From assembly GCA_046329805.1 (NCBI GenBank), contig JAXLUA010000001.1, positions 86,542-150,541 on the forward strand: 64,000 bases of DNA. The letters are read 5' to 3'. Positions 41,801-61,139 of this stretch are shown here, one piece after another. The position numbers were made by a program, and so were the translations under genes. Below the pieces are notes generated by a model that did not search any database, was not told the origin of the DNA, and saw only the letters and a program-made list of their open reading frames with translations. This DNA comes from Chitinophagales bacterium. Its GTDB lineage: Bacteria; Bacteroidota; Bacteroidia; Chitinophagales; JADIYW01. Numbering within the stretch: the stretch's first letter is position 1; each line of letters opens with the position of its first letter.

Positions 41801-41878
41801 GGGCGCATAGCTCAGCTGGTTCAGAGCATCTGCCTTACAAGCAGGGGGTCCGCGGTTCGAACCCGTGTGCGCCCACCA
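41801..41878 (+). tRNA. tRNA-Val (anticodon TAC), CCA encoded
   Basis: Cloverleaf read by hand. Acceptor GGGCGCA/TGCGCCC, D-arm GCTC...GAGC, anticodon stem TCTGC/GCAGG with loop CTTACAA, T-arm CGCGG-TTCGAAC-CCGTG, discriminator A, then CCA. Confidence 0.95.
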
Positions 41879-43983: not shown

Positions 43984-45025
43984 ATGTTCTACTGCTTTGA
44001 GAAGAAAGATAATCATTATTTTGTTCTGTACTAAAAGCGCATCATAATGGCACACCTAACTTCACAACAAAGATACACAATAGAACAACTTCTAAAAGCT
44101 AAAAAATCACAACAATATATTGCCGATATTATTGGCAAAGACAAAAGCGTAGTAAGTAGAGAAATCAAACGCAATAGCATGTACAATGGTATTTATAAAT
44201 CAGATAATGCACAATCTTATTATCTTTTTAACCGGGAAAAATCTAGGCGTAAAAGCAAATGGACACTTACATTACAGGAGGAAATCATAAAAACCCTAAA
44301 AGAAGATAAAAGCCCTGAGCAGGTAGTGGGTATTCGTAAAAAAAATAAACAAGACACCGTATCTGTTGAAAGTATTTACACCTTTATTTGGCAGGATAAA
44401 AAGAATGGTGGGAGTCTTTATACCCATTTGCGCAATGGAGCTAAAAGATACAGAAAACGAGGTAATTACAAGGACAATAGAGGTATTGTCAAAGACAAAG
44501 TGATGATTGTTGAACGACCAGAAATAGTAGCTAAAAAAGAACGAGTTGGGGATGTAGAAGTTGATTTAGTAATAGGCGCAAATCATCAACACGCACTACT
44601 TACTATTGTAGATAGAAGTACAGGATTTGCTTGGATAAGAAAACTAGAAAGTAAAAATGCAACAGCGGTAAGCACTCAAATTATTGATGCGCTAAGACCG
44701 CATAAGCACTGGATAAGAACCATTACCTCAGACAATGGAAAAGAATTTGCAAATCATAAAACAATAGCTACAGCCTTAGAAATAGATTATTATTTTGCCA
44801 ATCCATACCACAGTTGGGAAAGAGGTTGTAATGAAAACTACAACCGATTGGTAAGACAATATTTTCCTAAAAAATCAGACTTTACAATTATTACTAAACA
44901 ACAAGTTCAAGAGGTAGAAAACAAACTAAACCAAAGAGAACGAAAACGATTAGATTTTGAAAATCCAATCAACTATATTTACAAAAAATTATTAACCCAA
45001 AAAGTTGCATTTGCAACTTGAATCT
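43909..45025 (+). mobile_element. IS30-family insertion sequence (1117 bp)
   Basis: Perfect 28-bp terminal inverted repeats: agattcaagttgcaaatgcaactttttg at 43909-43936 is the reverse complement of 44998-45025. They enclose a single transposase ORF. Confidence 0.9.
44047..45021 (+). CDS. IS30-family DDE transposase
   Basis: N-terminal HTH (QQRYTIEQLLKAKKSQQYIADIIGKDKSVVSREIKRN). DDE region VDLVIG...TSDNGKEF...PYHSWERGCNENYNRLVRQYFPK. Confidence 0.9.
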   Translation: MAHLTSQQRYTIEQLLKAKKSQQYIADIIGKDKSVVSREIKRNSMYNGIYKSDNAQSYYLFNREKSRRKSKWTLTLQEEIIKTLKEDKSPEQVVGIRKKNKQDTVSVESIYTFIWQDKKNGGSLYTHLRNGAKRYRKRGNYKDNRGIVKDKVMIVERPEIVAKKERVGDVEVDLVIGANHQHALLTIVDRSTGFAWIRKLESKNATAVSTQIIDALRPHKHWIRTITSDNGKEFANHKTIATALEIDYYFANPYHSWERGCNENYNRLVRQYFPKKSDFTIITKQQVQEVENKLNQRERKRLDFENPINYIYKKLLTQKVAFAT

Positions 45026-45957: not shown

Positions 45958-47328
45958 ATGTCAGGTAAGCAACATTGGATTTCGGAACAATATTTGGAGT
46001 TGTCATTAACCCTTGAAAAGGATCATGAATTTAATAACATAATTATTCTACCCAATACGGAAGCAAAACTTATTCAATTAGCATTAAAATTAATTAACTG
46101 GAAACGAAAAGATGAAGCTTTAATTGTATGTAGAAAATGCATCCAAGACTTTCCAGAATGTGGCGAAGGTTACATTGTCACAGCTCAGATATTTTGGGAA
46201 TATAGAGATGAGAAAAGGGTTGTTTTTCTGCTTAAGTGTGCACTTGTTTGTATAGTATCAAATTCAAAAGAACCATCTATTTCGACAGAAGATCTATCAG
46301 ATGTTTTATCCTTATGGCCAGTTTCGTCAGAAATTGACAATACAGATATTGAACTTTCAGATACGTTTTCTTTATTAGGCGAACGTTATAATAATTTGAA
46401 ATATTATAGTGCCTCAACTATTTTTTTACGAGCAAGTTGTTTATTAGATAAATCAAACAGTTATTCGCATTCACGATTGGCTTATGCCTTACTTGAAGAT
46501 GATAAATTGATTGAAGCCATTCCTGTTATAAATGCTGGATTACTTTTAAATCCAAAAGACGATAAGTTATTGTCTTACTTAGGAATTGTATTTAAGACTT
46601 TCCATTATGAGCATTTTTCTTTTTTAGTTTTTATAAAGGCAGCATCCATTCAATTAAAAGATGAATCTATTCTGTTAAAAAAGAGAGAGCCTTCTGAAAT
46701 AGATACAATGTATGAACTCTTAAAAGATGACGTGCTCGAAAAATATTCAAACCCTTATTTTTATTTTCCAATCTTATCTTTAGAATCTTCACGTAAGTCC
46801 TTTGAGTCAGTAGCATATCTTTTAAACGCAAATAATTTAACGTATGCAATAAATATAGTTACTACACTATCTTCTATATTTGAAACAGAACTTAAAGATG
46901 TTTTATTTCAGTATTTTAAAAATGAAATCAACGCAACTGAAGGATTTAATTATGATAACCTTACAATGGGTACTATGCTAAGATTACTTCATCCACATCC
47001 TGAAAATTACATAACTTTAAAAGTGAAAACAAATAATCACAACAATGCTATATTACTAACACCGTTAATGAATTTTTATAAATGTAATAAAAATCAGATT
47101 ACTGAAATTGCAAATATAATCCAGACAATAATAGATATCAGAAACAACATTACACATGGTCAGATGATAAATGAAATAGAATTACAACAGTTTACTTCAT
47201 TTGTCAAATTAGCATTTATTTTACTTACAAATTTACGTGTGATGAAAACTACAGGAATTTTTTCAGAAATAAAGTTTGCAGTTAATAATAACTCATATCC
47301 ATTTAAAATAAAAATAGAGATTATATAA
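45958..47328 (+). CDS. TPR + C-terminal HEPN-like domain protein (paralog 2, intact)
   Basis: 456 aa. TPR-like segments (LLLNPKDDKLLSYLGIVFKTF...). The C-terminal ~190 aa carry a conserved acidic helix (SSIFETELKD) and the Rx4H motif IRNNITHG at 47140-47157. Confidence 0.6.
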   Translation: MSGKQHWISEQYLELSLTLEKDHEFNNIIILPNTEAKLIQLALKLINWKRKDEALIVCRKCIQDFPECGEGYIVTAQIFWEYRDEKRVVFLLKCALVCIVSNSKEPSISTEDLSDVLSLWPVSSEIDNTDIELSDTFSLLGERYNNLKYYSASTIFLRASCLLDKSNSYSHSRLAYALLEDDKLIEAIPVINAGLLLNPKDDKLLSYLGIVFKTFHYEHFSFLVFIKAASIQLKDESILLKKREPSEIDTMYELLKDDVLEKYSNPYFYFPILSLESSRKSFESVAYLLNANNLTYAINIVTTLSSIFETELKDVLFQYFKNEINATEGFNYDNLTMGTMLRLLHPHPENYITLKVKTNNHNNAILLTPLMNFYKCNKNQITEIANIIQTIIDIRNNITHGQMINEIELQQFTSFVKLAFILLTNLRVMKTTGIFSEIKFAVNNNSYPFKIKIEII

Positions 47329-47347: not shown

Positions 47348-48793
47348 CTATTTTATGTTGTAATTTTTCAATTTACTCTTCAATGTATTTGCAGTAATAC
47401 CTAAAACAATTCTGGTTCTTTCTAAATTCTTATTACACATTTCATATACATACCTACAATGCCGAAGTTCAATATCTTTTAGTAATAACGAATGTTCTTT
47501 GCTTGGGTTAAGTATTCTATCAGGTAAATTTTCTAACAATACAGTATCGTGTGCTTCGGCAAAGATTCTATCTACCAAGTTTTCCATCTCTCTGATATTA
47601 CCCGGAAATAGATACTCTAATATACGTTTTTTTATATCAAGTCTTATTTTAGGCTCTTTTTTATTAAATTTTACCTTACTCTTTTGCCATAAGAAATTAA
47701 AGACTTCTTCTTTTTCTTTTAATGTATATTCTTTCAAAGAGGGAAGATATAAATCAGTAACAGCAAGACGATAATATAGATCAGGTCGGAACTCTTTTTT
47801 GTTGCACATATCATATAGGTTTCTGTTAGTTGCAGAAATAACACGTACATCAACAATCTCAGGCTTACGGCTACCAACACGTAAAATTTCCTTTTTCTGA
47901 GGTTGTAATGCTCTTAATAAGCATTGTTGCATATATGGAGTAATATCACCTATTTCATCTAAAAAGATCGTACCTCCATCTGCTTCGTGAAATAAGCCTG
48001 TAGTTCTTTCATTAGCACCTGTAAAAGCACCTTTCTCATAACCAAACAACCTACTTTCTAAGAGTTCATTGCTTAATGCAGAACAATTTATTGCAACAAA
48101 TGTACCTTTTGCACGAGGCGAATTATCATGAATATACTTAGCCAACAATTCTTTCCCTGATCCTGTTTCACCACCAATCAATACAGATACGCAATCGGCT
48201 TCTGCTATCTTCTTTGCCTTGTCGTAAGTCTTTTTGAGGGTTTGAGTAATGACTATATTCTGTTGTTTCTCATTTAAAGATTGTGGGGATTCTTGCCTGA
48301 TGATTAATGATGATGTATAGTCAGATTTTTCAAGTTCAATCCATACTTGCTCTGATTCTTTATTTTTACTATGCTCTGGTCTTCGCATTTGAAACAAGCG
48401 GGTTTTAAGACCAAGTGTTTGATGTGCGAGATACCACGCAACCTGCATCGTGGGAGTGCCAGGCGATACAAAAATATCAATGCTATGTTCTTTATTACTT
48501 AGTAATAAAGTATTCACTTTGGCACTAATTTCTTTAATATCTATGACATCATTTATTGACATTGCTCTCTCAATTATTTTATGTCCTTTATATTCCTTAC
48601 GCAAATAGGTTACCAAAAATTGATACTTAGTATCATCTGATGTGTTTTTCTTACTGCTTAACAGTAGATGATAGTCATAGTCTGTATAGAAGTGTTTATG
48701 TAATAAACTATTGGGTCCGTTAGGATTTTCAGCAGATTTATCTTTGATAAAATCATTTTCTGTCGCTACCCAAGAGATAAGAATTTTGCCCAT
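47348..48793 (-). CDS. RtcR-like sigma-54-dependent transcriptional activator (CARF-like N-domain + AAA+ + HTH)
   Basis: The central bEBP core shows Walker A GETGSGKE, the sigma-54 contact loop EKGAFTGA, Walker B IFLDEIG, and an R-finger region. A C-terminal HTH is present. The N-terminal ~150 aa ([13 protein letters not shown]..., [20 protein letters not shown]..., RLFQMRRPE) parallel the RtcR N-domain as I remember it (ITTGTHVAQICWFLLAE...RLIQSSPP). It is not a receiver, PAS or GAF domain. Confidence 0.8.
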
Positions 48794-48900
48794 AACAAGA
48801 GAGTTTATTTCATATTAAATATAATCATTTTTTGATGTGCAGAATAAAAATTTGATTATTTCCTTTACACCAATTAGCATTTCATATACTGTTCTTCATT

Positions 48901-48916
48901 TGGCATTTTGGTTGCA
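48901..48916 (+). promoter_or_regulatory. sigma-54 (-24/-12) promoter, TGGCAT-N5-TTGCA
   Basis: tggcat tttgg ttgca read directly. GG lies at 48902-48903 and GC at 48914-48915, with exact GG-N10-GC spacing. It is 108 bp from, and divergent to, the bEBP start codon, and points toward 49466. Confidence 0.7.
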
Positions 48917-48997
48917 CAAGAGGTATAAAAGTTCTTTATAGTATTGACAATAAAAAATACCGAATACATCGTATTCGGCAAAATAAGTTTAACAATT

Positions 48998-49029
48998 ATA
49001 TGCGACAAGGGCGACACCATAGTCAGGGA
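48998..49029 (+). repeat. 32-bp conserved core repeat, copy 1
   Basis: atatgcgacaagggcgacaccatagtcaggga is identical to 49130-49161. It contains the internal direct repeat GCGACA-N3-GCGACA. Confidence 0.9.
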
Positions 49030-49129
49030 AATTATTGAATCACTCATACAGTCTTCTGAACTATATGCGACCAATGCAATGAAGCAGTCTGGGTATTCAA
49101 CGATATACTCATATTATTTAACAGAAGAA

Positions 49130-49161
49130 ATATGCGACAAGGGCGACACCATAGTCAGGGA
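49130..49161 (+). repeat. 32-bp conserved core repeat, copy 2
   Basis: Identical to copy 1, 132 bp downstream. The flanks are related but diverged with indels (TTTAACA...core...ATTATT(G/A)A). A third partial ATATGCGAC lies at 49063-49071. Confidence 0.9.
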
Positions 49162-49465
49162 TATACATGGATTATTAAGTCCACAATTTTCTCATATAGT
49201 AAAAGAACCTATTTGAGTAATAGTATACACGAATTAAAATATTTGTCAAGTGTTTTTAGATGTGTTTAAAGTAGCCTAAAAAGCCTTATAAATTATGAAC
49301 GAAAATCTACAACAACAATTTACAAGAGGTAATACCGAAGAATTATCGAACAGAATTTACTTACAAGATGATTCGTGATATACTCGAATCATTAGTGTTT
49401 CTATTGGTAAATAGTCGCACAAAATCTCTTTTCATAGTTCTTTTTAAAAATTAAAAATTTTAGCA

Positions 49466-50602
49466 ATGAAAAATAATCAATTAACAACGACTACATTCCA
49501 GTCAAACGATATTGATCTGGACGAAAAAATGTCTAAACTCAAAGATGAGTTAGATACACTCCATCATCAGTTTTTAGAGAAAGTTCCTTTTGATGCTTCG
49601 AGCCTTGCATATAGTAATCTGCCAACACAGGATGCAGATAAAATAGAGCCATACATCACTAAGATAAAAGGGTTTTATTCTCGCTTACGCAACGACATAC
49701 CACAAAAAGTACAAGGTTCTTTACAACTTGTGTATGGTGCTTTTGATATGACACCTTTGGATGAACAGTTAAAGAAACTGGAACAACAGAAAATAATTAC
49801 TGAAAGGGAAAAGAATCATCTCAAAGATGAATTGAAACAACGACCCAAGCCACGAGATATTAGTCAGTACAAATGGACCAAGGTGTTGTTAGGATTTCTT
49901 GCATTCTTTGATGTAATGTCTATGATTGCATCATTCATGGGTACGTTTCAAGAAAACTACCTCTTCGCCATTGTTCTCGGAATTACTATAGGTCTTTCAC
50001 TTATCTACTTCACTAAATCATTGGTATTGCACATTAGAGATACACCTCAAACAAAAACCTCACTTGCCGTTAAATGGGCATCGGTTATTTTACTCTTACT
50101 CATTTCGATATTCATAGGAGGACTACGATATGTTCAATCCACCGATGATGGCACAGTCCATCAGGCAACACTGTATTCCAACCCTTTTGTATTCATTGTC
50201 TTTAACCTGCTCATAGTAGCGACAACAGCGTTCATCGTGTACACGAAAGTACCAAGCGAGAAAGATATACAGGAATATTTGGCGTATAAAAAATGTGAAG
50301 ATGAAATTATTCAGAAAGAGCAAGAGATAAAACAGATTGATAAGGATATGGAGGATATAAAACTAAAGAAGTCCATTACTGCCAAATATCGTTTACAACT
50401 TCGCCACTATCAGAAAATCTTTTATGAACGCATACAGGCGATGTATGAACAGGCAGTAGGCGAGTTTATTATCGCCAATTTAAAAGGGCGCACCGATGGC
50501 AAGAACCCTCTTTGCTTTACGCTCCCACTTGCTCCGCTTAGCATTTCAAATGAAGATGAAATAATTGATAACGTATTAAAACACCACAACGATGAAAACT
50601 AA
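49466..50602 (+). CDS. hypothetical membrane protein (coiled-coil / 4 TM / coiled-coil)
   Basis: 378 aa. Four hydrophobic helices (VLLGFLAFFDVMSMIASFM, LFAIVLGITIGLSLIYF, WASVILLLLISIFIGGL, FVFIVFNLLIVATTAFIVY) are flanked by charged heptad-like regions. It is the first long ORF downstream of the sigma-54 promoter. Confidence 0.6.
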   Translation: MKNNQLTTTTFQSNDIDLDEKMSKLKDELDTLHHQFLEKVPFDASSLAYSNLPTQDADKIEPYITKIKGFYSRLRNDIPQKVQGSLQLVYGAFDMTPLDEQLKKLEQQKIITEREKNHLKDELKQRPKPRDISQYKWTKVLLGFLAFFDVMSMIASFMGTFQENYLFAIVLGITIGLSLIYFTKSLVLHIRDTPQTKTSLAVKWASVILLLLISIFIGGLRYVQSTDDGTVHQATLYSNPFVFIVFNLLIVATTAFIVYTKVPSEKDIQEYLAYKKCEDEIIQKEQEIKQIDKDMEDIKLKKSITAKYRLQLRHYQKIFYERIQAMYEQAVGEFIIANLKGRTDGKNPLCFTLPLAPLSISNEDEIIDNVLKHHNDEN

Positions 50603-54659: not shown

Positions 54660-57600
54660 ATGCGGAAACAAACTTTAATAAAACTAATACTCACACTCGT
54701 GATCTTGTTGAATAAAATACATAGTTATGCACAAAGTACAAGTTATCAGATGTTATATAATGATGGCACTTTTACAAAGAGTATAAATACCGGTTTGCAG
54801 GTCGGTGTTGTTGATGGACAGCAAGGTACTACACAGACGGGAGCTGCAACATATACCATTCCAATAAAAGTAACTCCGGGAATAAATGGAATGGAACCTA
54901 AATTAGCAATTACATACAGTTCACAAAATGGAAATGGTTTATTAGGTGTAGGGTGGAACTTAAGTGGTCTAAGTTCAATAACATTAGATAATAGGAATAT
55001 ATATTATGATGGAAAGACTGCACCAATAAATATTGCACCAACTGTGTCGAGTGATGGGACAGCTTTTTCATTGGATGGCATGAGATTAATTGGGAGAAGT
55101 GGTACATATGGTTGGGCTGGATCAACTTATTCCACAGAATTAGAGAATTATTCTTTAATTACTGCTCAAGGTGTTGCTAATGCAAGTTGTGGTTGTCCTT
55201 TAAATTTTAATATTAAAACAAAAGATGGATTAAGTATGGATTATGGTGATAATGGAAGCAATCCAGATGCTCTCATACTTTCATATGGTAATTCATACCC
55301 AATAATGTGGCGTTTAAAAAGAACAACAGATAACAATGGAAATTACATAGATTATAAGTATTCTATTACGACTGACGGTGAATCTAAAATTGATGAGATT
55401 AATTATACAGGAAACTCTACAAATAATGTGGCAACTCCATTTGCCAAAGTAAAATTTATCTATTCTGAACGTTCAGATCCAAATATAATGTATGTAGTTG
55501 GTTCCAATTCAACGAATGCAACGACATTAAAGAGTAAATGGCTGTTAGATAAAATAATAATAACTTCCGATGCACAAACGGTAAAAACATACAAGTTTAA
55601 TTATGCCTTTGATGGTATTTATTCTGTATTACAAGAAGTTAAAGAAATTGGGTCTGATAATACAGAATTAAACTCTACCATTCTTAGGTACGGAAATCCA
55701 AAAGAATTGGATGCAGCAAACTCTAATGTTGTTTCAACAACAACTAATAATATTAGTACTACTAATTCGGATAATTTCACAGGTGATTTTGACGGAGATG
55801 GGTACACTGATATTTTAACTGCTTATTACACATCTCCTACATTGCGACAATATACAAGTATCAAAATATTTAGAAAGATTCCCAATACAAACAATTTTCA
55901 AGATATATATACTTATAATTTACCATCAACGATTAATATTTCTGGTACTAATTACCCGGCTTTTAGATATATAAACGTAGCTGATTATGATGGGGATGGG
56001 AAAAGTGATATTATGTTTGATAACTATTATTCTGCAAGTATTCCCAATTCATCTGCTTACGTTTTTATTTCTGGGAAGTATTCAAATACGGCTTTAATGA
56101 GCACGTGTACAAATAGTAGTTATGGTTTTAGTGTTAATGAATACAATAACTTAACAAACCTTGGTGTTTTTGGAAGCTGTTCAGCTAGTATTTATGGGGC
56201 TACTGAATCTGCATCAACGACAGTGCGAAGCCAGTTTATTAATGGAGATTTTGACGGAGATGGAGCAACCGATATTATTACAACATTATTCAATGTTGGT
56301 GTTAATGCCCCTTCTCAAGGAAACAGAACATTTATTACAAGAATTAATACTAATGAATTTTATTCTCCAATTAAATTAAATTCGACAGGTAGCTATTCCG
56401 ATCTTGGTGACCTTTGCGCTACTTATAAGCCTGTTGCAGTGGCTGATTTTGATGGGGACGGTAAAGACGAAATATTATTAGAAAATGGAATGATTCTCTT
56501 TTTTAGAAAAAATAGTAGTAATCAATGGGAATGCGGTACCATTATGTCGCCTATTAGTTCTACAGACAAGGTTTATTGTGGTGATTTTAATGGAGATGGA
56601 AAGACTGATATTTTAAGAGGTAGCAAATACGCTTGGGGTTTTAATGATTGGAAAGTATTTTATAGTAAAGGATATGGTTTTGATTCCTTATCAATGTCTA
56701 TGCAAAGTATGGCTTTTGACCAGACGTTAGATTATAAGAATATGAAGATTATTATTGGCGATTTTAATGGAGATGGAAAAGCTGATATAATACAACAGGT
56801 AATTCCAATGATACAGGTTTCACAAACCTATTCCGCACCAGCAAATTATTCCAATTTACATATTTGCTATAGTAATGGAGTTAATTTTACTTACAGAGAT
56901 ATTACTATAAATAACAGTAATACCAATCTATACATACCCAAGATATTTGGTGATTTTGATGGTGATGGAGCTACGGATATTATATGTAGATCGGATATAT
57001 CGCATACTATAAATAGTAAACCATATATGTTCGAGAGTTTTGGAAATCAACAAAAAGAGAGATATTTACGGAAAATTATTGATGGATTTAATCGAAAAAC
57101 AGAATTTACATATAGCCCACTTACAATAGGGTTGCCATTTTACAACAATGGAAATGGACCAACATCTTATTATCTTACTACAAACTCATTGAAAATACCA
57201 ATATATGCAGTTTCAAATGTCATAACTCCTGATGGTATCGGCGGGAATATTACCACTTCATATACATATACAGATGTAGTTATGGGTAAATATCGGAAAG
57301 GATTTTTTGGATTCTCTAAGATTAATTCTCTAAACTCATTGACTAACATCAATACAGAAATTCTTTATGAAAATAATGTAAATGTTACTAATAATACAAT
57401 TACTTCTCTAATCCCAGTTAGTATTAAAGCAACGCTAAATGGCAATGTCATCTCACAAAATACATATTCATATGCATATACATTTTTAGGCAATAAAAGA
57501 TTTAAGACTGAACTTTCAAATAGCACAAGTATTGATAACGTGAATGGAAAGACTTTGAATTCTAACTATGTTTACGACGGAAATGGAAATGTTATAAATC

Positions 57601-60600
57601 AAACAATTAATAACACAGGTATTGAAGTATTTACAATAAATAGACCAGTGGCTGATTTCGTAATAAGCGGGACAGGAACTGTGCCCTCATTGCCAAAAAC
57701 AATAATTGAGTCAACAACAAGAGGTAGTACAACTTTTAGTAAGACGACCAAATTAAACTATGATTCAAAAGGAAGGATAATTAGCAAAATTGATTTCGAT
57801 GGTACAACAAACAAATTAACCACTACTTTTGGATATGATAATTTTGGAAATATTATAACCACTTCATCATCGGGATTTACTACTGGTGTTGGTATTGCAA
57901 CAATTACTAAAAATACTCCATTTAGTTTTGATGGCAGATACTTGCAATCTTCTGAGATACAAAATGTAAAAGGTGTTGAAAATATAGATGCATATGATAA
58001 TAAATGGCAGACGCCCACCTCTATAACCAATGCTTCAACTTATAGGCATACTCAAATAACCTATGATGCTTTTGGAAGAACTGTTAATTTAAAGCCAACT
58101 ATGCCTGGTGGACCGACAACTTATGATATTAATACCAAATATGATTGGAGTACATTGCCGAATAGTATCTATATGGTAACCCAAACCCCTTATGGTATGT
58201 CTGAAACAAGGCAATACTATGATATGTTTAATCGTTTAGTTAGAGAAGAAAAAACAGTAAATGGTAAGACAAAGTTTACCCAAAATACTTATGACGCAAA
58301 AGGGGATATTATAAATATTAAAACTAATGATGCAGATGGGGGTACAATAGAAACAATAAATACCTATGATTTATATCATAGGCTACTCACTAGTTCACCT
58401 ACTATTGGGGCTGCATCTGCTAATACTTATACTGTTTCCTCTAATGGATATACTGTTTCTAGTTCTACTACAGGATATCCATTAAAAATTAGTAAAATAG
58501 ATGCAACAGGAAAAACAACAGAAGTTACCGAAACTGCTGGAACCAATTCGGTTACAAATATATATTCTTATCATGCTAATGGCAGATTATTAAAAGTAAC
58601 TCAGTCAGGAAAAGATTTAGTTGTTTGTGAATACGATGCTAATGGTAATCAAACTAAATTAACCGATATTGATGCCGGTTCAACTTTGTATGAGTATGAT
58701 GCTTTTAGGAATATTACAAAGCAGACCGATGGTAAAAATAATATAACTGAATCCACCTATGACCTTTCTGCAAGACCATCAACAAAGTCTGTTACGGATG
58801 GTGCTAACCCAGGAAATTATCAGACGGTCGATTTGTATAGTTATTATCCTGCAAATTCTAGTGGAGAAGGGTTAGTAAAACAAATTCAACATTTTAATTA
58901 TGCAGAATCAGGTGCTAATATTATTCAGAATTATGAGTATGATGAATATGATAGATTAAAAAAAGAGACTAAAAATTTTGAAGGAACTAATTTTGTCACT
59001 CAATATGAATACGGCGATTATGGTAGGTTAAAAAGCGTAACATATCCAAGTGCTACAGGTATTAACCCTGTTAAAATTTCATATACAACAACTGCTGATG
59101 GTTATGTAACTAATGTGAGTGCTTTAAATGCTGGAGTTTCAAAAACAATTTTAAATACTTCAACAGCTAATAACTATAATGCATTCGACCAGTTAAAATC
59201 CTATTCATTAGGCAATGGATTAAGTAGTCAAACAGATTACAATAAATTGGGTATGCCTACAAGGTATCTGACAAACTCTGTATTTCTTTTTATACCATAC
59301 AGATTACAAGATTTGCAGATGCCAATTTGGGATTTAAATAATGGTAATTTGATGAAAAGAATTGATGCATCAAACAATAACAGACCAACTACAACTGAAG
59401 TTTTTACGTATGATGGTTTTAATAGATTAACTAGTTCTACAGTCGGGACAACAACACTTGGAGTTGGATATGATGCTATTGGCAATATAACAAATAAGTT
59501 TGACGCAGGGACAGAGTATCTTTACAATTCGCCTAAGATACATGCAGTAGAAAACATAAAAAGCAAAATTTATGATTATCCGTTGCCAATTTATCCTCAA
59601 TATCCAAGCAATAACGCCCCTAATGAACGCAGTGATATAAGTGGTGATAAACAGCAAATCATTTATAACGGAATTAACCAGCCATCTTTAATAATAGAAG
59701 GTGGAGGAGTTGGAAGTAATCTTATAAAAAAATTAAAGTATATCTATGATATTGATGGAAATAGAATTAAGAGTATATACACAGAAGAGAATAGTTTAGG
59801 TGTTATTGATGCAAGTAAAACTATAAATCGTTATTATTTGGGTAACTATGAATTTGAAAAGGATGCTAATAACAACATTACTCGCCAACTTAATTATATC
59901 AGTACGCCTGTTGGCTTAACATCAATTTTAGATAAAGAATCTGGACAGGCTGATGCTTATTTCTTTACATATACAGACCACTTAGGTAGCGTTGTTACAG
60001 TTACGGATCAAAATGCCGTACCAGTAGTTTATCAGAGTTTTGATGCATGGGGAAGACCTAGAAGTACATACGACTGGAGTTACAATAATATATCTGCACC
60101 ACCAGCTGCTTTAAACGTAGGCTTCACCGGGCACGAAATGTTATCTAAGTTTGACTTGATAAATATGAACGGTAGATTATATGATCCAAAAGTCGGACGT
60201 ATGTTAGCATCTGATAATTATGTACATGATGCCTTTAATACACAGCATTTTAATCGATATAGTTATGTTTGGAATAATCCTTTAAAATATATAGATATCA
60301 ATGGAGAAGATGGAGATGGTTTTTCTTTTTATATTCCATCTAGTCCAATAAATTGGGACTTCTCAAATATTAACCTTACAATTCCAAGCCCTCAACTCCC
60401 AACAATATATAATCTTGATTATTACAACACGCCACTATTTCCTATTTCTACATTTGGAGGATATAGCTCAAATGCTTGGGGTAATACCGATAATTTTGTT
60501 TGGACTACAAATCAAGCCATAGCTACAGCCAATTCAGTAGTTGGAGATGCTAATGCTGTCAATGCAAGTTTAATGACATACATGAATGGATATACAACAA

Positions 60601-61139
60601 ATGGAGCTGCTGCAACAACTGAATTAGCGACAACAATAAGTTGGGGAGAAATAGGAACAAGTATAGGTGAAGGATTAGCAGCATTGGGTACATTTGCAAC
60701 TTCTGTAACATGGGGGGCTATAGGTATATTAACTAGTGGTGGTAGTTCTGAGCGAAGAGTAGATGATTATGCACCAGCACAGCCAATTACCATTGCGCCA
60801 CCAATTAGTACGACAGGTAATCCTCAATTATATGAACAATATGCATTAGTTGCTACAAGAACAGGTTTATATCCTACAGCATCCTGGGGTGTTCCATTTA
60901 GGGCAGATTTGGCACCTAAAAAGCTAATGTTTGCCGGGGAAGTGTGGAAATATGGAACTACAAAAAATGGAGTTGGCAGATATACAAATTCATTTTATAC
61001 TACCACGGGAATGGGTTTAGATTATGTGACACAATTTTCAGGCACCTTATTACAAGTAAGAGCAGAAGAAGCAACTAAGATTATAAATTATTATTTTTGG
61101 TATGGCGATTTGCCACCGGGAAATAAATGCTTACATTAA
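54660..61139 (+). CDS. SpvB/FG-GAP/RHS-repeat polymorphic toxin (TcB-TcC-like fusion) with variable C-terminal domain
   Basis: Signal peptide. SpvB-like N-terminus ([47 protein letters not shown]). Seven FG-GAP/VCBS motifs (GDFDGDGxTDI) lie at ~55780-56990. YD repeats ([30 protein letters not shown]...) are present. The RHS core ends at [16 protein letters not shown]...[19 protein letters not shown] (60171-60308). Confidence 0.9.
   Translation: [2159 protein letters not shown]
60309..61136 (+). other. C-terminal variable (toxin) region of the RHS protein
   Basis: ~276 aa after the RHS core boundary. It includes a Gly/Ala/Thr-rich hydrophobic stretch ([36 protein letters not shown]) and a terminal ~120-aa globular part with [20 protein letters not shown]. 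Confidence 0.6.

Follow-up and report, generated by a model that had tools for sequence, protein, structure and literature searches.

A swappable repeat-bearing cassette facing the RtcR-type promoter of a Bacteroidota mobilizable element, a candidate gene for an allele-specific small RNA

We analyzed a stretch of 64,000 nucleotides from a Chitinophagales bacterium (Bacteroidota; GenBank assembly GCA_046329805.1, contig JAXLUA010000001.1, positions 86,542 to 150,541 of the forward strand), hereafter the window, in which a 32-nt sequence occurs twice in the leader of a predicted mobilization operon. The original prediction for this locus, made from the sequence without database searches, had placed the duplication in a sigma-54 leader and had hesitated between a DNA site, a structured RNA and a small repeat protein. 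The repeats turn out to lie in a hypervariable non-coding cassette that is replaced as a unit between related elements, and they may be modules of a small RNA (sRNA) gene transcribed from the minus strand, head-on to the promoter of the transfer genes.

The mobilizable element, its activator and its target operon

The island begins just after a tRNA-Val gene (41801-41878) and is a predicted integrative mobilizable element at that gene; with the 3' end of the tRNA as attR query, we found no second copy in the window. Across the whole window Rfam recognized only a tRNA, and ARAGORN only the tRNA-Val. Related contigs (given here as L numbers) share a backbone composed of an HTH_17 gene, a 79-aa gene, a cargo slot, and the 378-aa gene onward. 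The element is rare, appearing on a handful of metagenomic contigs; a 24-mer anchor from the conserved region had no match in the GTDB representatives, the JGI metagenomes or IMG/VR, scanning viral contigs with protein queries returned nothing, and a plasmid collection returned generic sigma-54 AAA+ matches only.

The activator gene, rtcR, encodes a CARF, sigma-54 AAA+ and HTH protein that matches PADLOC RtcR_PspF2 over residues 3-481 (1.9e-120) and Pfam Sigma54_activat (PF00158; 6.7e-62), with the GAFTGA motif at residue 255. Against NCBIfam RtcR it scores 257 bits, short of the equivalog cut-off (650), and we therefore treat it as an RtcR relative and not as an RtcR ortholog. An inverted repeat between rtcR and the sigma-54 promoter is probably the upstream activating site for this protein, to judge from its placement and its retention in L001-L004; TCAA-N-TTGA palindromes resembling it precede promoters in L011, L012 and L022.

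The sigma-54 promoter has no second match in the window, its GGCAT-N6-TTGC is retained in L001, L003 and L007, and its transcript is predicted to start at ~48927. The operon that follows from 49466 comprises, in order, the 378-aa gene, a 243-aa gene, a 49-aa gene, the type IV coupling protein (T4CP) gene, a 190-aa gene and a gene for a MobA/VirD2-type relaxase. More distant RtcR relatives are 63-65% identical (61-65% when L012 is counted in): those in L022 and L011 lie ~150 nt divergent from operons with T4CP and distant homologs of the 378-aa gene, those in L008-L010 lie ~150 nt from a divergent operon that contains a tyrosine integrase, and -24/-12-like elements are found within the short spacers beside distant RtcR relatives. 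Because RtcR relatives adjoin homologs of the 378-aa gene, the sigma-54 promoter of the window is directed at the mobilization operon, which its transcript can reach only by crossing the cassette. The framing of the region as a sigma-54 leader thus stands, with a promoter unique in the window and RtcR relatives ~150 nt from the 378-aa gene homologs elsewhere. By gene order, the target of this regulator family is a mobilization or excision operon, and the leader of ~540 nt found in the window is presumably a lineage-specific insertion between promoter and operon. We rejected the idea that the leader is a decayed gene: the small proteins encoded after the sigma-54 promoter in relatives (104, 107, 178 and 122-127 aa) have no tblastn similarity to it.

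Repeat cores

The 32-mer ATATGCGACAAGGGCGACACCATAGTCAGGGA is present in exactly two copies in the window, identical at 32 of 32 positions and 132 bp apart as originally described. No further copy with <=3 mismatches occurs elsewhere in the 64 kb (0 expected from 100 shuffles), and a 32/32 match was reached in 0 of 300 shuffles of the cassette. The ATATGCGAC at 49063 that had been noticed as a third occurrence opens a degenerate copy, being the first 9 bases common to the cores; the start-to-start spacings of the three copies are 65 and 67 nt. Tandem Repeats Finder (TRF) reported no tandem array. Within the core is the tandem GCGACA-N3-GCGACA, and around the copies is related sequence (TTTAACA ... 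ATTATTGA/ATTATTAA), both as the original prediction had it; the core is 32/32 identical although these flanks have diverged with indels. The core is also an island of composition, with a GC content of 53%, the remainder of the cassette having 28%.

The duplication is real and non-random. Two independent ENA assemblies (L015, L016) contain the identical sequence together with its repeats. Four contigs in Logan (L017-L020), assembled from different runs, all break off inside the first 32-mer, with position 1 at window 49027, because an exact repeat breaks de Bruijn graph assembly; short-read assemblies will therefore often miss the region.

A 22-mer of the core had 0 matches in 185,579 GTDB species-representative genomes and 2 exact matches in metagenomes (L013:2343-2364 and L014:2511-2532), both within unrelated GC-rich coding sequences; we put these down to chance and the use of common GC-rich codons. 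Each has an in-frame reading as DKGDTIVL, in one of them at a lipoprotein N-terminus (…FTACDKGDTIV…), and the two have 3 additional bases in common with each other.

A hypervariable cassette

Alignment of the leader of the window with those of L001/L002, L003/L004 and L007 divides it into five zones. The upstream site, the sigma-54 promoter and a hairpin, all conserved, are followed by a cassette of 233-274 nt that defies alignment among alleles A, B and C, whichever strand is taken; directly after the cassette comes an invariant block, TAGTATACACGAATTAAAATATTTGTCAAGTG, then a conserved 27-aa open reading frame (ORF), and finally, immediately before the 378-aa gene, ~100 nt that are common even to elements lacking RtcR. 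The comparison with related loci that the original prediction proposed therefore finds the promoter and the upstream inverted repeat kept but the cassette unalignable. Allele A is that of the window, allele B that of L001 and L007 (71% identical to each other), and allele C that of L003. Between related elements, the sequences flanking the cassette are 85-94% identical, and rtcR of the window and of L003 are 91% identical at the DNA level, yet cassettes of different alleles are 53-58% identical, which is the random level. Such a cassette between such flanks has been swapped as one unit. Inversion was rejected as the source of the alleles, since reverse-complementing A yields neither B nor C. 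All allele-A sequences at hand are identical, so no purifying selection is measurable among them.

The core had been called conserved, and it is so between its two copies and among samples of the same allele, but not in homologous loci. What recurs there, in part, is an architecture: allele C has a 32-nt pair of its own, 27/32 identical at a spacing of 66 nt, which 0 of 300 shuffles reach. Alleles A and C are alike in having 32-36-nt repeats, 30-34-nt spacers and a period of ~66 nt.

Which allele is present follows the type of cargo to the left of rtcR (L001 goes with L007, L003 stands apart and the window is different) and not the similarity of rtcR itself. This grouping, in four loci, is a hint and only a hint that cassette and defense cargo are functionally linked.

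Minus-strand borders of the cassette

The hairpin at 48960-48978, predicted to lie at about +34 of the sigma-54 transcript, is indeed present. What had been missed is that it has the shape of an intrinsic terminator for the opposite strand, and that a predicted minus-strand promoter, conserved between loci, bounds the cassette at its other end. On the minus strand the hairpin has a stem of 9-10 bp, a 3-nt loop and a U6 tract, while on the plus strand an invariant A6 precedes it and no U tract follows. It is the one terminator-like site in 48700-49600 (0.1 expected). The shape recurs in L001, L003 and L007, with the U6 invariant and two compensatory changes in the stem (CCGAATAC/GTATTCGG vs CTGGATAC/GTATCCAG). 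Between the sigma-54 promoter and the operon we found no plus-strand terminator.

At the other border, TTGACA-16/17-TAnAnT is present at 7 loci with variable spacer sequences; it is not the Bacteroidota sigma-A consensus. Hexamer matches number 11/12 in the window, L001 and L003, 10/12 in L006 and 12/12 in L024. The cassette is exactly bounded by conserved minus-strand promoter and terminator shapes. In Bacteroides, a validated intergenic sRNA typically has both a start site of its own and an intrinsic terminator (PMC7366714). The RNA role suggested in the original prediction is the best reading of the region, but given promoter and terminator shapes on the minus strand, a functional RNA is more likely to be the reverse complement of the leader considered there.

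Predicted folding leans the same way. In the hairpin at 49045-49067 and in hairpin 1 of L007, a position that would be a C-A mismatch on the plus strand is a G-U pair on the minus strand, and the minus-strand fold z-scores are equal or better in 3/4 alleles (z = -2.3 for the cassette of the window). A search for trans-pairing of the cassette with the conserved operon leader was set aside, similarities to GATGATTCGTGATATACTC being within the shuffle range and unrestricted duplexfold uninformative.

A structured RNA in sister elements

Elements without RtcR (L005, L006, L024) keep the promoter, as TTGACA-17-TATGAT, TTGACA-17-TAGACT and TTGACA-17-TATAAT respectively, with differing spacer sequence. 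It is followed by two minus-strand hairpins, whose stems differ between the loci yet stay complementary; RNAalifold on the three finds double changes in 6/20 predicted pairs, and the loop of the first hairpin is conserved as UCCAAAyCU. An intrinsic terminator with compensatory changes ends the RNA in L006 and L024, and the L005 contig stops before that point. These features make a convincing case for a ~130-nt structured RNA gene in the sister elements, and by its position the cassette of the window occupies the homologous slot. Rfam gave no match in the leader at E<=10 and none in five related loci at E<=1.

Table 1. Features of the cassette region and its surroundings (window coordinates unless a related locus is named)
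Feature	Position	Strand	Remarks
HEPN/TPR paralogs, ~460 aa	42598-43983; 45958-47328	+	31% mutually identical; weak matches
IS30-family transposase	44047-45021	+	between the HEPN/TPR paralogs
RtcR-like activator, CARF + sigma-54 AAA+ + HTH, 481 aa	47348..48793	-
Inverted repeat ATAATCATTTTTTGAT / ATAAAAATTTGATTAT	48821..48859	.	kept in L001-L004
Sigma-54 (-24/-12) promoter TGGCATTTTGGTTGCA	48901..48916	+	sole match in window, 0.14 expected
Intrinsic-terminator-shaped hairpin (stem 48980-48958), then TTTTTTATTG	48948..48980	-	the hairpin originally placed at +34
Hypervariable non-coding cassette, allele A	48981..49220	-	proposed body of ~265-nt sRNA; unalignable to B/C; no conserved ORF
32-nt core, copy 1	48998..49029	+
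Hairpin CATACAGT-loop-ACTATATG	49045..49067	-	8 perfect pairs (one G-U); plus strand has C-A mismatch; predicted folds
Degenerate third core copy	49063..49097	+	63% identity
32-nt core, copy 2	49130..49161	+
Promoter-like TTGACA-16-TATACT, 11/12 matches	49222..49249	-	identical in L001, L003; inside invariant block
AATATTTG, 7/8 match to Bacteroidota -7 box TAnnTTTG	49238..49245	+	possible back-to-back operon promoter
Upstream ORF, 27 aa (MNENLQQQF...YLQDDS)	49295..49378	+	same length and related sequence in L001, L003, L007
378-aa membrane/coiled-coil protein, first long mobilization-operon gene	49466..50602	+
Predicted ~130-nt RNA gene of sister elements	L005:1-114, L006:8004-8164, L024:5556-5716	- (of each locus)	no Rfam match

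Neighboring genes and cargo

The 27-aa ORF downstream of the invariant block has the sequence MNENLQQQFTRGNTEELSNRIYLQDDS, and its stop codon lies inside an inverted repeat, ATGATTCG-N9-CGAATCAT (49368-49392). It resembles a leader peptide or attenuator of the mobilization operon. In L005 and L006, which lack RtcR, a 13-aa ORF ending in IDDS-stop is found at the equivalent spot, just upstream of the 378-aa gene.

The cargo slot differs among the elements. In the window it holds the two HEPN/TPR paralogs, the IS30-type transposase and rtcR; in L001, L003 and L007, rtcR and then a TerY-P-like vWA/kinase/PP2C set; and in L006 and L024, a HATPase_c protein and a 307-aa protein. That the window paralogs are HEPN RNases is a weakly supported assignment; the second of them runs toward rtcR and ends 20 nt from the rtcR stop. 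The TerY-P-like set lies on the rtcR strand (L001:652-4135, L003:648-4418, L007:2708-5729), encodes a 196-255-aa protein, vWA, kinase and PP2C, and diverges much faster (32-59% aa identity) than rtcR (71-95%). An association of RtcR with TerY-P has already been described in defense islands (PMC11090510). Directly after the relaxase gene of the window comes a gene for a 2159-aa RHS / FG-GAP / SpvB / TcdB-type toxin (54660-61139, plus strand), and an RHS-type protein is also encoded near the RtcR relative of L012. To judge from the other Bacteroidota contigs L008-L011, L012 and L022, RtcR-type sensors appear repeatedly wired to excision/mobilization genes.

Interpretation of the cassette

That the cassette acts as RNA, on one strand or the other, is in our view probable. 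More specifically, we propose that the repeats are modules of a repeat-bearing, allele-specific sRNA gene on the minus strand, facing the RtcR-type promoter of the mobilizable element; this we favor tentatively, rating it a little short of even. The sRNA would start ~7 nt downstream of TTGACA-16-TATACT (49249-49222), at about 49215, cross the ~240-nt cassette, and end at the hairpin and U6 (48980-48948), at about 48950, for ~265 nt in total; in this RNA the cores would read UCCCUGACUAUGGUGUCGCCCUUGUCGCAUAU. The RNA body would, in the RtcR-bearing lineage, have turned into a swappable allele-specific cassette. The sigma-54 promoter aims head-on at the proposed gene, so that the two transcription units would collide, and since there is no plus-strand terminator before 49466, an RtcR-induced transcript would be fully complementary to the sRNA over the whole cassette. 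Read-through into the transfer genes, driven by RtcR, may be gated by the sRNA through transcriptional interference, through formation of a duplex that is then cleaved, or through both. The GC-rich, unstructured 32-mers would be the two strongest pairing or binding modules in an AU-rich RNA, and the gate would be specific to each element through the differences between alleles. The weakest part of this model is the role of the repeats themselves, which could be a pairing-nucleation or a protein-binding module.

Several observations weigh against a minus-strand sRNA built on these repeats. Nothing that we computed requires the 32-mer in two copies, and the 32-mer alone is unstructured on either strand (fold z about 0). 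Allele B has at best a weak repeat: L001 has no 32-nt repeat pair, and L007 has a weak one (21/32, 105 nt apart) that 12 of 300 shuffles reach. The primary sigma factor of Bacteroidota is reported to use TAnnTTTG/TTTG and not -35/-10 hexamers (PMC7366714), and the host is one of the Chitinophagales; no good TAnnTTTG is conserved on the minus strand, and the conserved promoter block might instead be a plus-strand promoter acting through AATATTTG. Covariation between L001 and L007 is similar on both strands (5 compensatory pairs on the plus strand vs 4 on the minus strand, from two sequences only). Finally, GCGAC and ACTAT occur in both directions across the alleles, which fits recognition at the DNA level at least as well as recognition in RNA.

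A functional RNA might exist on the plus strand only, as a structured 5' leader of the RtcR/sigma-54 transcript in which the +34 hairpin is a 5' stabilizer and the repeats serve as modules for binding or processing, perhaps by an RNA-binding protein or an RNase encoded in the cargo. In its favor, both the sigma-54 promoter and the upstream site are conserved and point toward the cassette, the plus-strand fold of L001 equals its minus-strand fold, the plus-strand alifold of L001 and L007 has 13 one-sided consistent changes besides its compensatory ones, and a long-range GUUCUUU/AAAGAAC stem closes the domain in 3/4 alleles. We nevertheless consider a purely plus-strand role unlikely: it leaves unexplained the invariant A6 5' of the hairpin (U6 on the other strand), the conserved minus-strand promoter hexamers and the sister minus-strand RNA, and it is only on the minus strand that G-U pairs take the place of the two C-A mismatches. 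As for the long-range stem, GTTCTTT is a common 7-mer in these sequences, and we rejected GTTCTTT/AAAGAAC as a special motif. Somewhat more doubtful are operator- or iteron-like sites in double-stranded DNA, bound by an allele-specific protein (perhaps cargo-encoded) and serving as a roadblock or an architectural element on the way from the sigma-54 promoter to the operon. Short motifs in both orientations keep such binding sites alive as an explanation: GCGAC/GTCGC is enriched across the alleles (9 observed vs 0.8 expected), ACTAT/ATAGT is enriched in all of them (18 vs 3.1), and TATGCGAC sits on one strand in the window but on the other in L007. The tandem GCGACA within the core, its lack of RNA structure, and an allele that tracks the cargo left of rtcR instead of rtcR itself would suit DNA sites as well. 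Yet 32 perfectly kept base pairs would make a long operator, none of the spacings (65, 67 and 132 bp) is a multiple of the helical turn, L001 has lost the GCGAC motifs, and we found no candidate DNA-binding protein in the cargo of the window; the ATAGT/ACTAT pairs, moreover, have variable spacing and extended complementarity, like hairpins and unlike fixed dimer sites.

The cassette could also have no function, being recombination debris at a cargo junction in which the 32-bp identity records a recent local duplication. The region is a replacement hot spot and the available allele-A sequences are all identical, but this account appears improbable when the flanks have diverged with indels around a 32/32 core that is a GC island, when an unrelated allele has the same 32-nt/66-nt repeat geometry, and when cassette length is held at 233-274 nt between conserved, regulatory-looking borders. 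Still less probable, to our minds, is that the cassette RNA is the allele-specific partner of variable defense cargo (HEPN/TPR in the window, TerY-P-like vWA/kinase/PP2C in relatives), for example as a bait RNA that, when cleaved or bound in phage attack or RNA damage, would yield a CARF ligand (2',3'-cyclic-phosphate fragments) and turn on the RtcR-like activator. If it were true, RNA damage would be coupled directly to mobilization-gene expression, an 'abandon ship' response in which the 32-mers would be recognition or cleavage modules. Repeats of 32-36 nt with spacers of 30-34 nt, laid out between a promoter and a terminator beside a CARF gene on a mobile element, bring to mind a CRISPR-like mini-array or repeat mimic that makes a crRNA-like or anti-CRISPR RNA; we find this very hard to credit, with a middle repeat only 63% identical, no cas genes near the locus, a 22-mer unmatched among the species-representative genomes in a search that did not reach the source genome itself, and repeats wholly different between close relatives, the opposite of CRISPR behavior. 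We give almost no credence to a small repeat protein. The TTG-started 90-aa ORF pointed out earlier (48944-49216) exists and carries both cores in one frame, and ATG ORFs begin inside the cores. But alleles B and C (L001, L003, L007) conserve no equivalent ORF, there is no match in Pfam, NCBIfam or PADLOC and no tblastn counterpart, and the 90-aa ORF would start upstream of the conserved terminator hairpin and read through it. The repeats are non-coding.

Comparison with known regulatory RNAs

A close parallel in layout to the proposed minus-strand sRNA gene may be FinP, an RNA of ~79 nt with two stem-loops that depends on FinO and acts on traJ translation. As in the FinP/traJ leader of F-like plasmids, a countertranscript would lie within a transfer-gene leader, equipped with a promoter and a terminator for itself and directed head-on against the sense promoter; the geometry (sense start ~48927, proposed unit 49215-48950) provides the overlap with, and complementarity to, the sense leader. 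As with FinP, allelic sequence differences among related elements would give specificity. The candidate would differ in its ~265 nt with internal 32-nt repeats, its sigma-54/RtcR sense promoter and its Bacteroidota host.

The activator RteB of CTnDOT, an element of Bacteroides, is of the NtrC type. CTnDOT also encodes a small RNA, RteR, which is 90 nt long, trans-encoded, and damps tra expression (PMC3809561; PMC7366714). CTnDOT and the element of the window come from the same phylum, and in both, transfer genes would be under an enhancer-binding-type activator cascade plus an element sRNA. RteR, however, is encoded elsewhere in its element, and the CTnDOT activator is a two-component protein and not a CARF-domain RtcR; no sequence relation to RteR was found, and Rfam was without a match.

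The Salmonella rsr-yrlBA-rtcBA operon is under RtcR (PMC7790460), and it, too, combines a CARF-AAA+-HTH activator, a sigma-54 promoter and non-coding RNA inside the regulated stretch. Here the targets are mobilization genes and not RtcB/RtcA/Rsr, and the candidate RNA would be read from the opposite strand, behind a promoter of its own. The analogy to the Y-RNA-type RNAs of that operon, drawn in the original prediction, did not hold up: no Y-RNA-like or tRNA-like match was found in the leader in the Rfam search at E<=10, and among the regulated genes (378-aa, 243-aa, T4CP, relaxase) there is no RtcB, RtcA or Rsr.

In SGI1, sgm-sRNA is a 3'-derived RNA that transfer requires (PMC9299015). It shares with our candidate an integrative mobilizable element, a place in the mobilization module and a terminator-like element that sets transcript amounts; SGI1 belongs to an unrelated element family, and its RNA has neither repeats nor a sigma-54 link.

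ToxI-like arrays of type III toxin-antitoxin (TA) systems consist of head-to-tail repeats with a period of 35-45 nt. Their order of promoter, repeated RNA units, terminator and then same-strand genes (here rtcR; in relatives TerY-P-like) is matched, and in both cases repeats co-vary with neighboring proteins, but the units here are not head-to-tail and have a period of 66 nt. A type III TA antitoxin RNA was rejected, as TRF found no array and there is no protein of the ToxN, AbiQ, CptN or TenpN families. Judged by these comparisons, the cassette is of no described family.

Significance

To our knowledge, little has been established about transfer regulation in Bacteroidota beyond CTnDOT, and we know of no outputs for RtcR homologs beside defense cargo. 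As the element is rare, the practical value of the candidate is limited for now. If our interpretation is correct, a family of Bacteroidota mobilizable elements would have a small-RNA slot that has not been cataloged, and in one lineage this slot would hold a swappable repeat-bearing cassette head-on to the CARF/sigma-54 promoter of the transfer genes. A sensor usually tied to RNA damage and defense islands would thereby be linked to horizontal transfer, with an element-specific antisense gate between the two.

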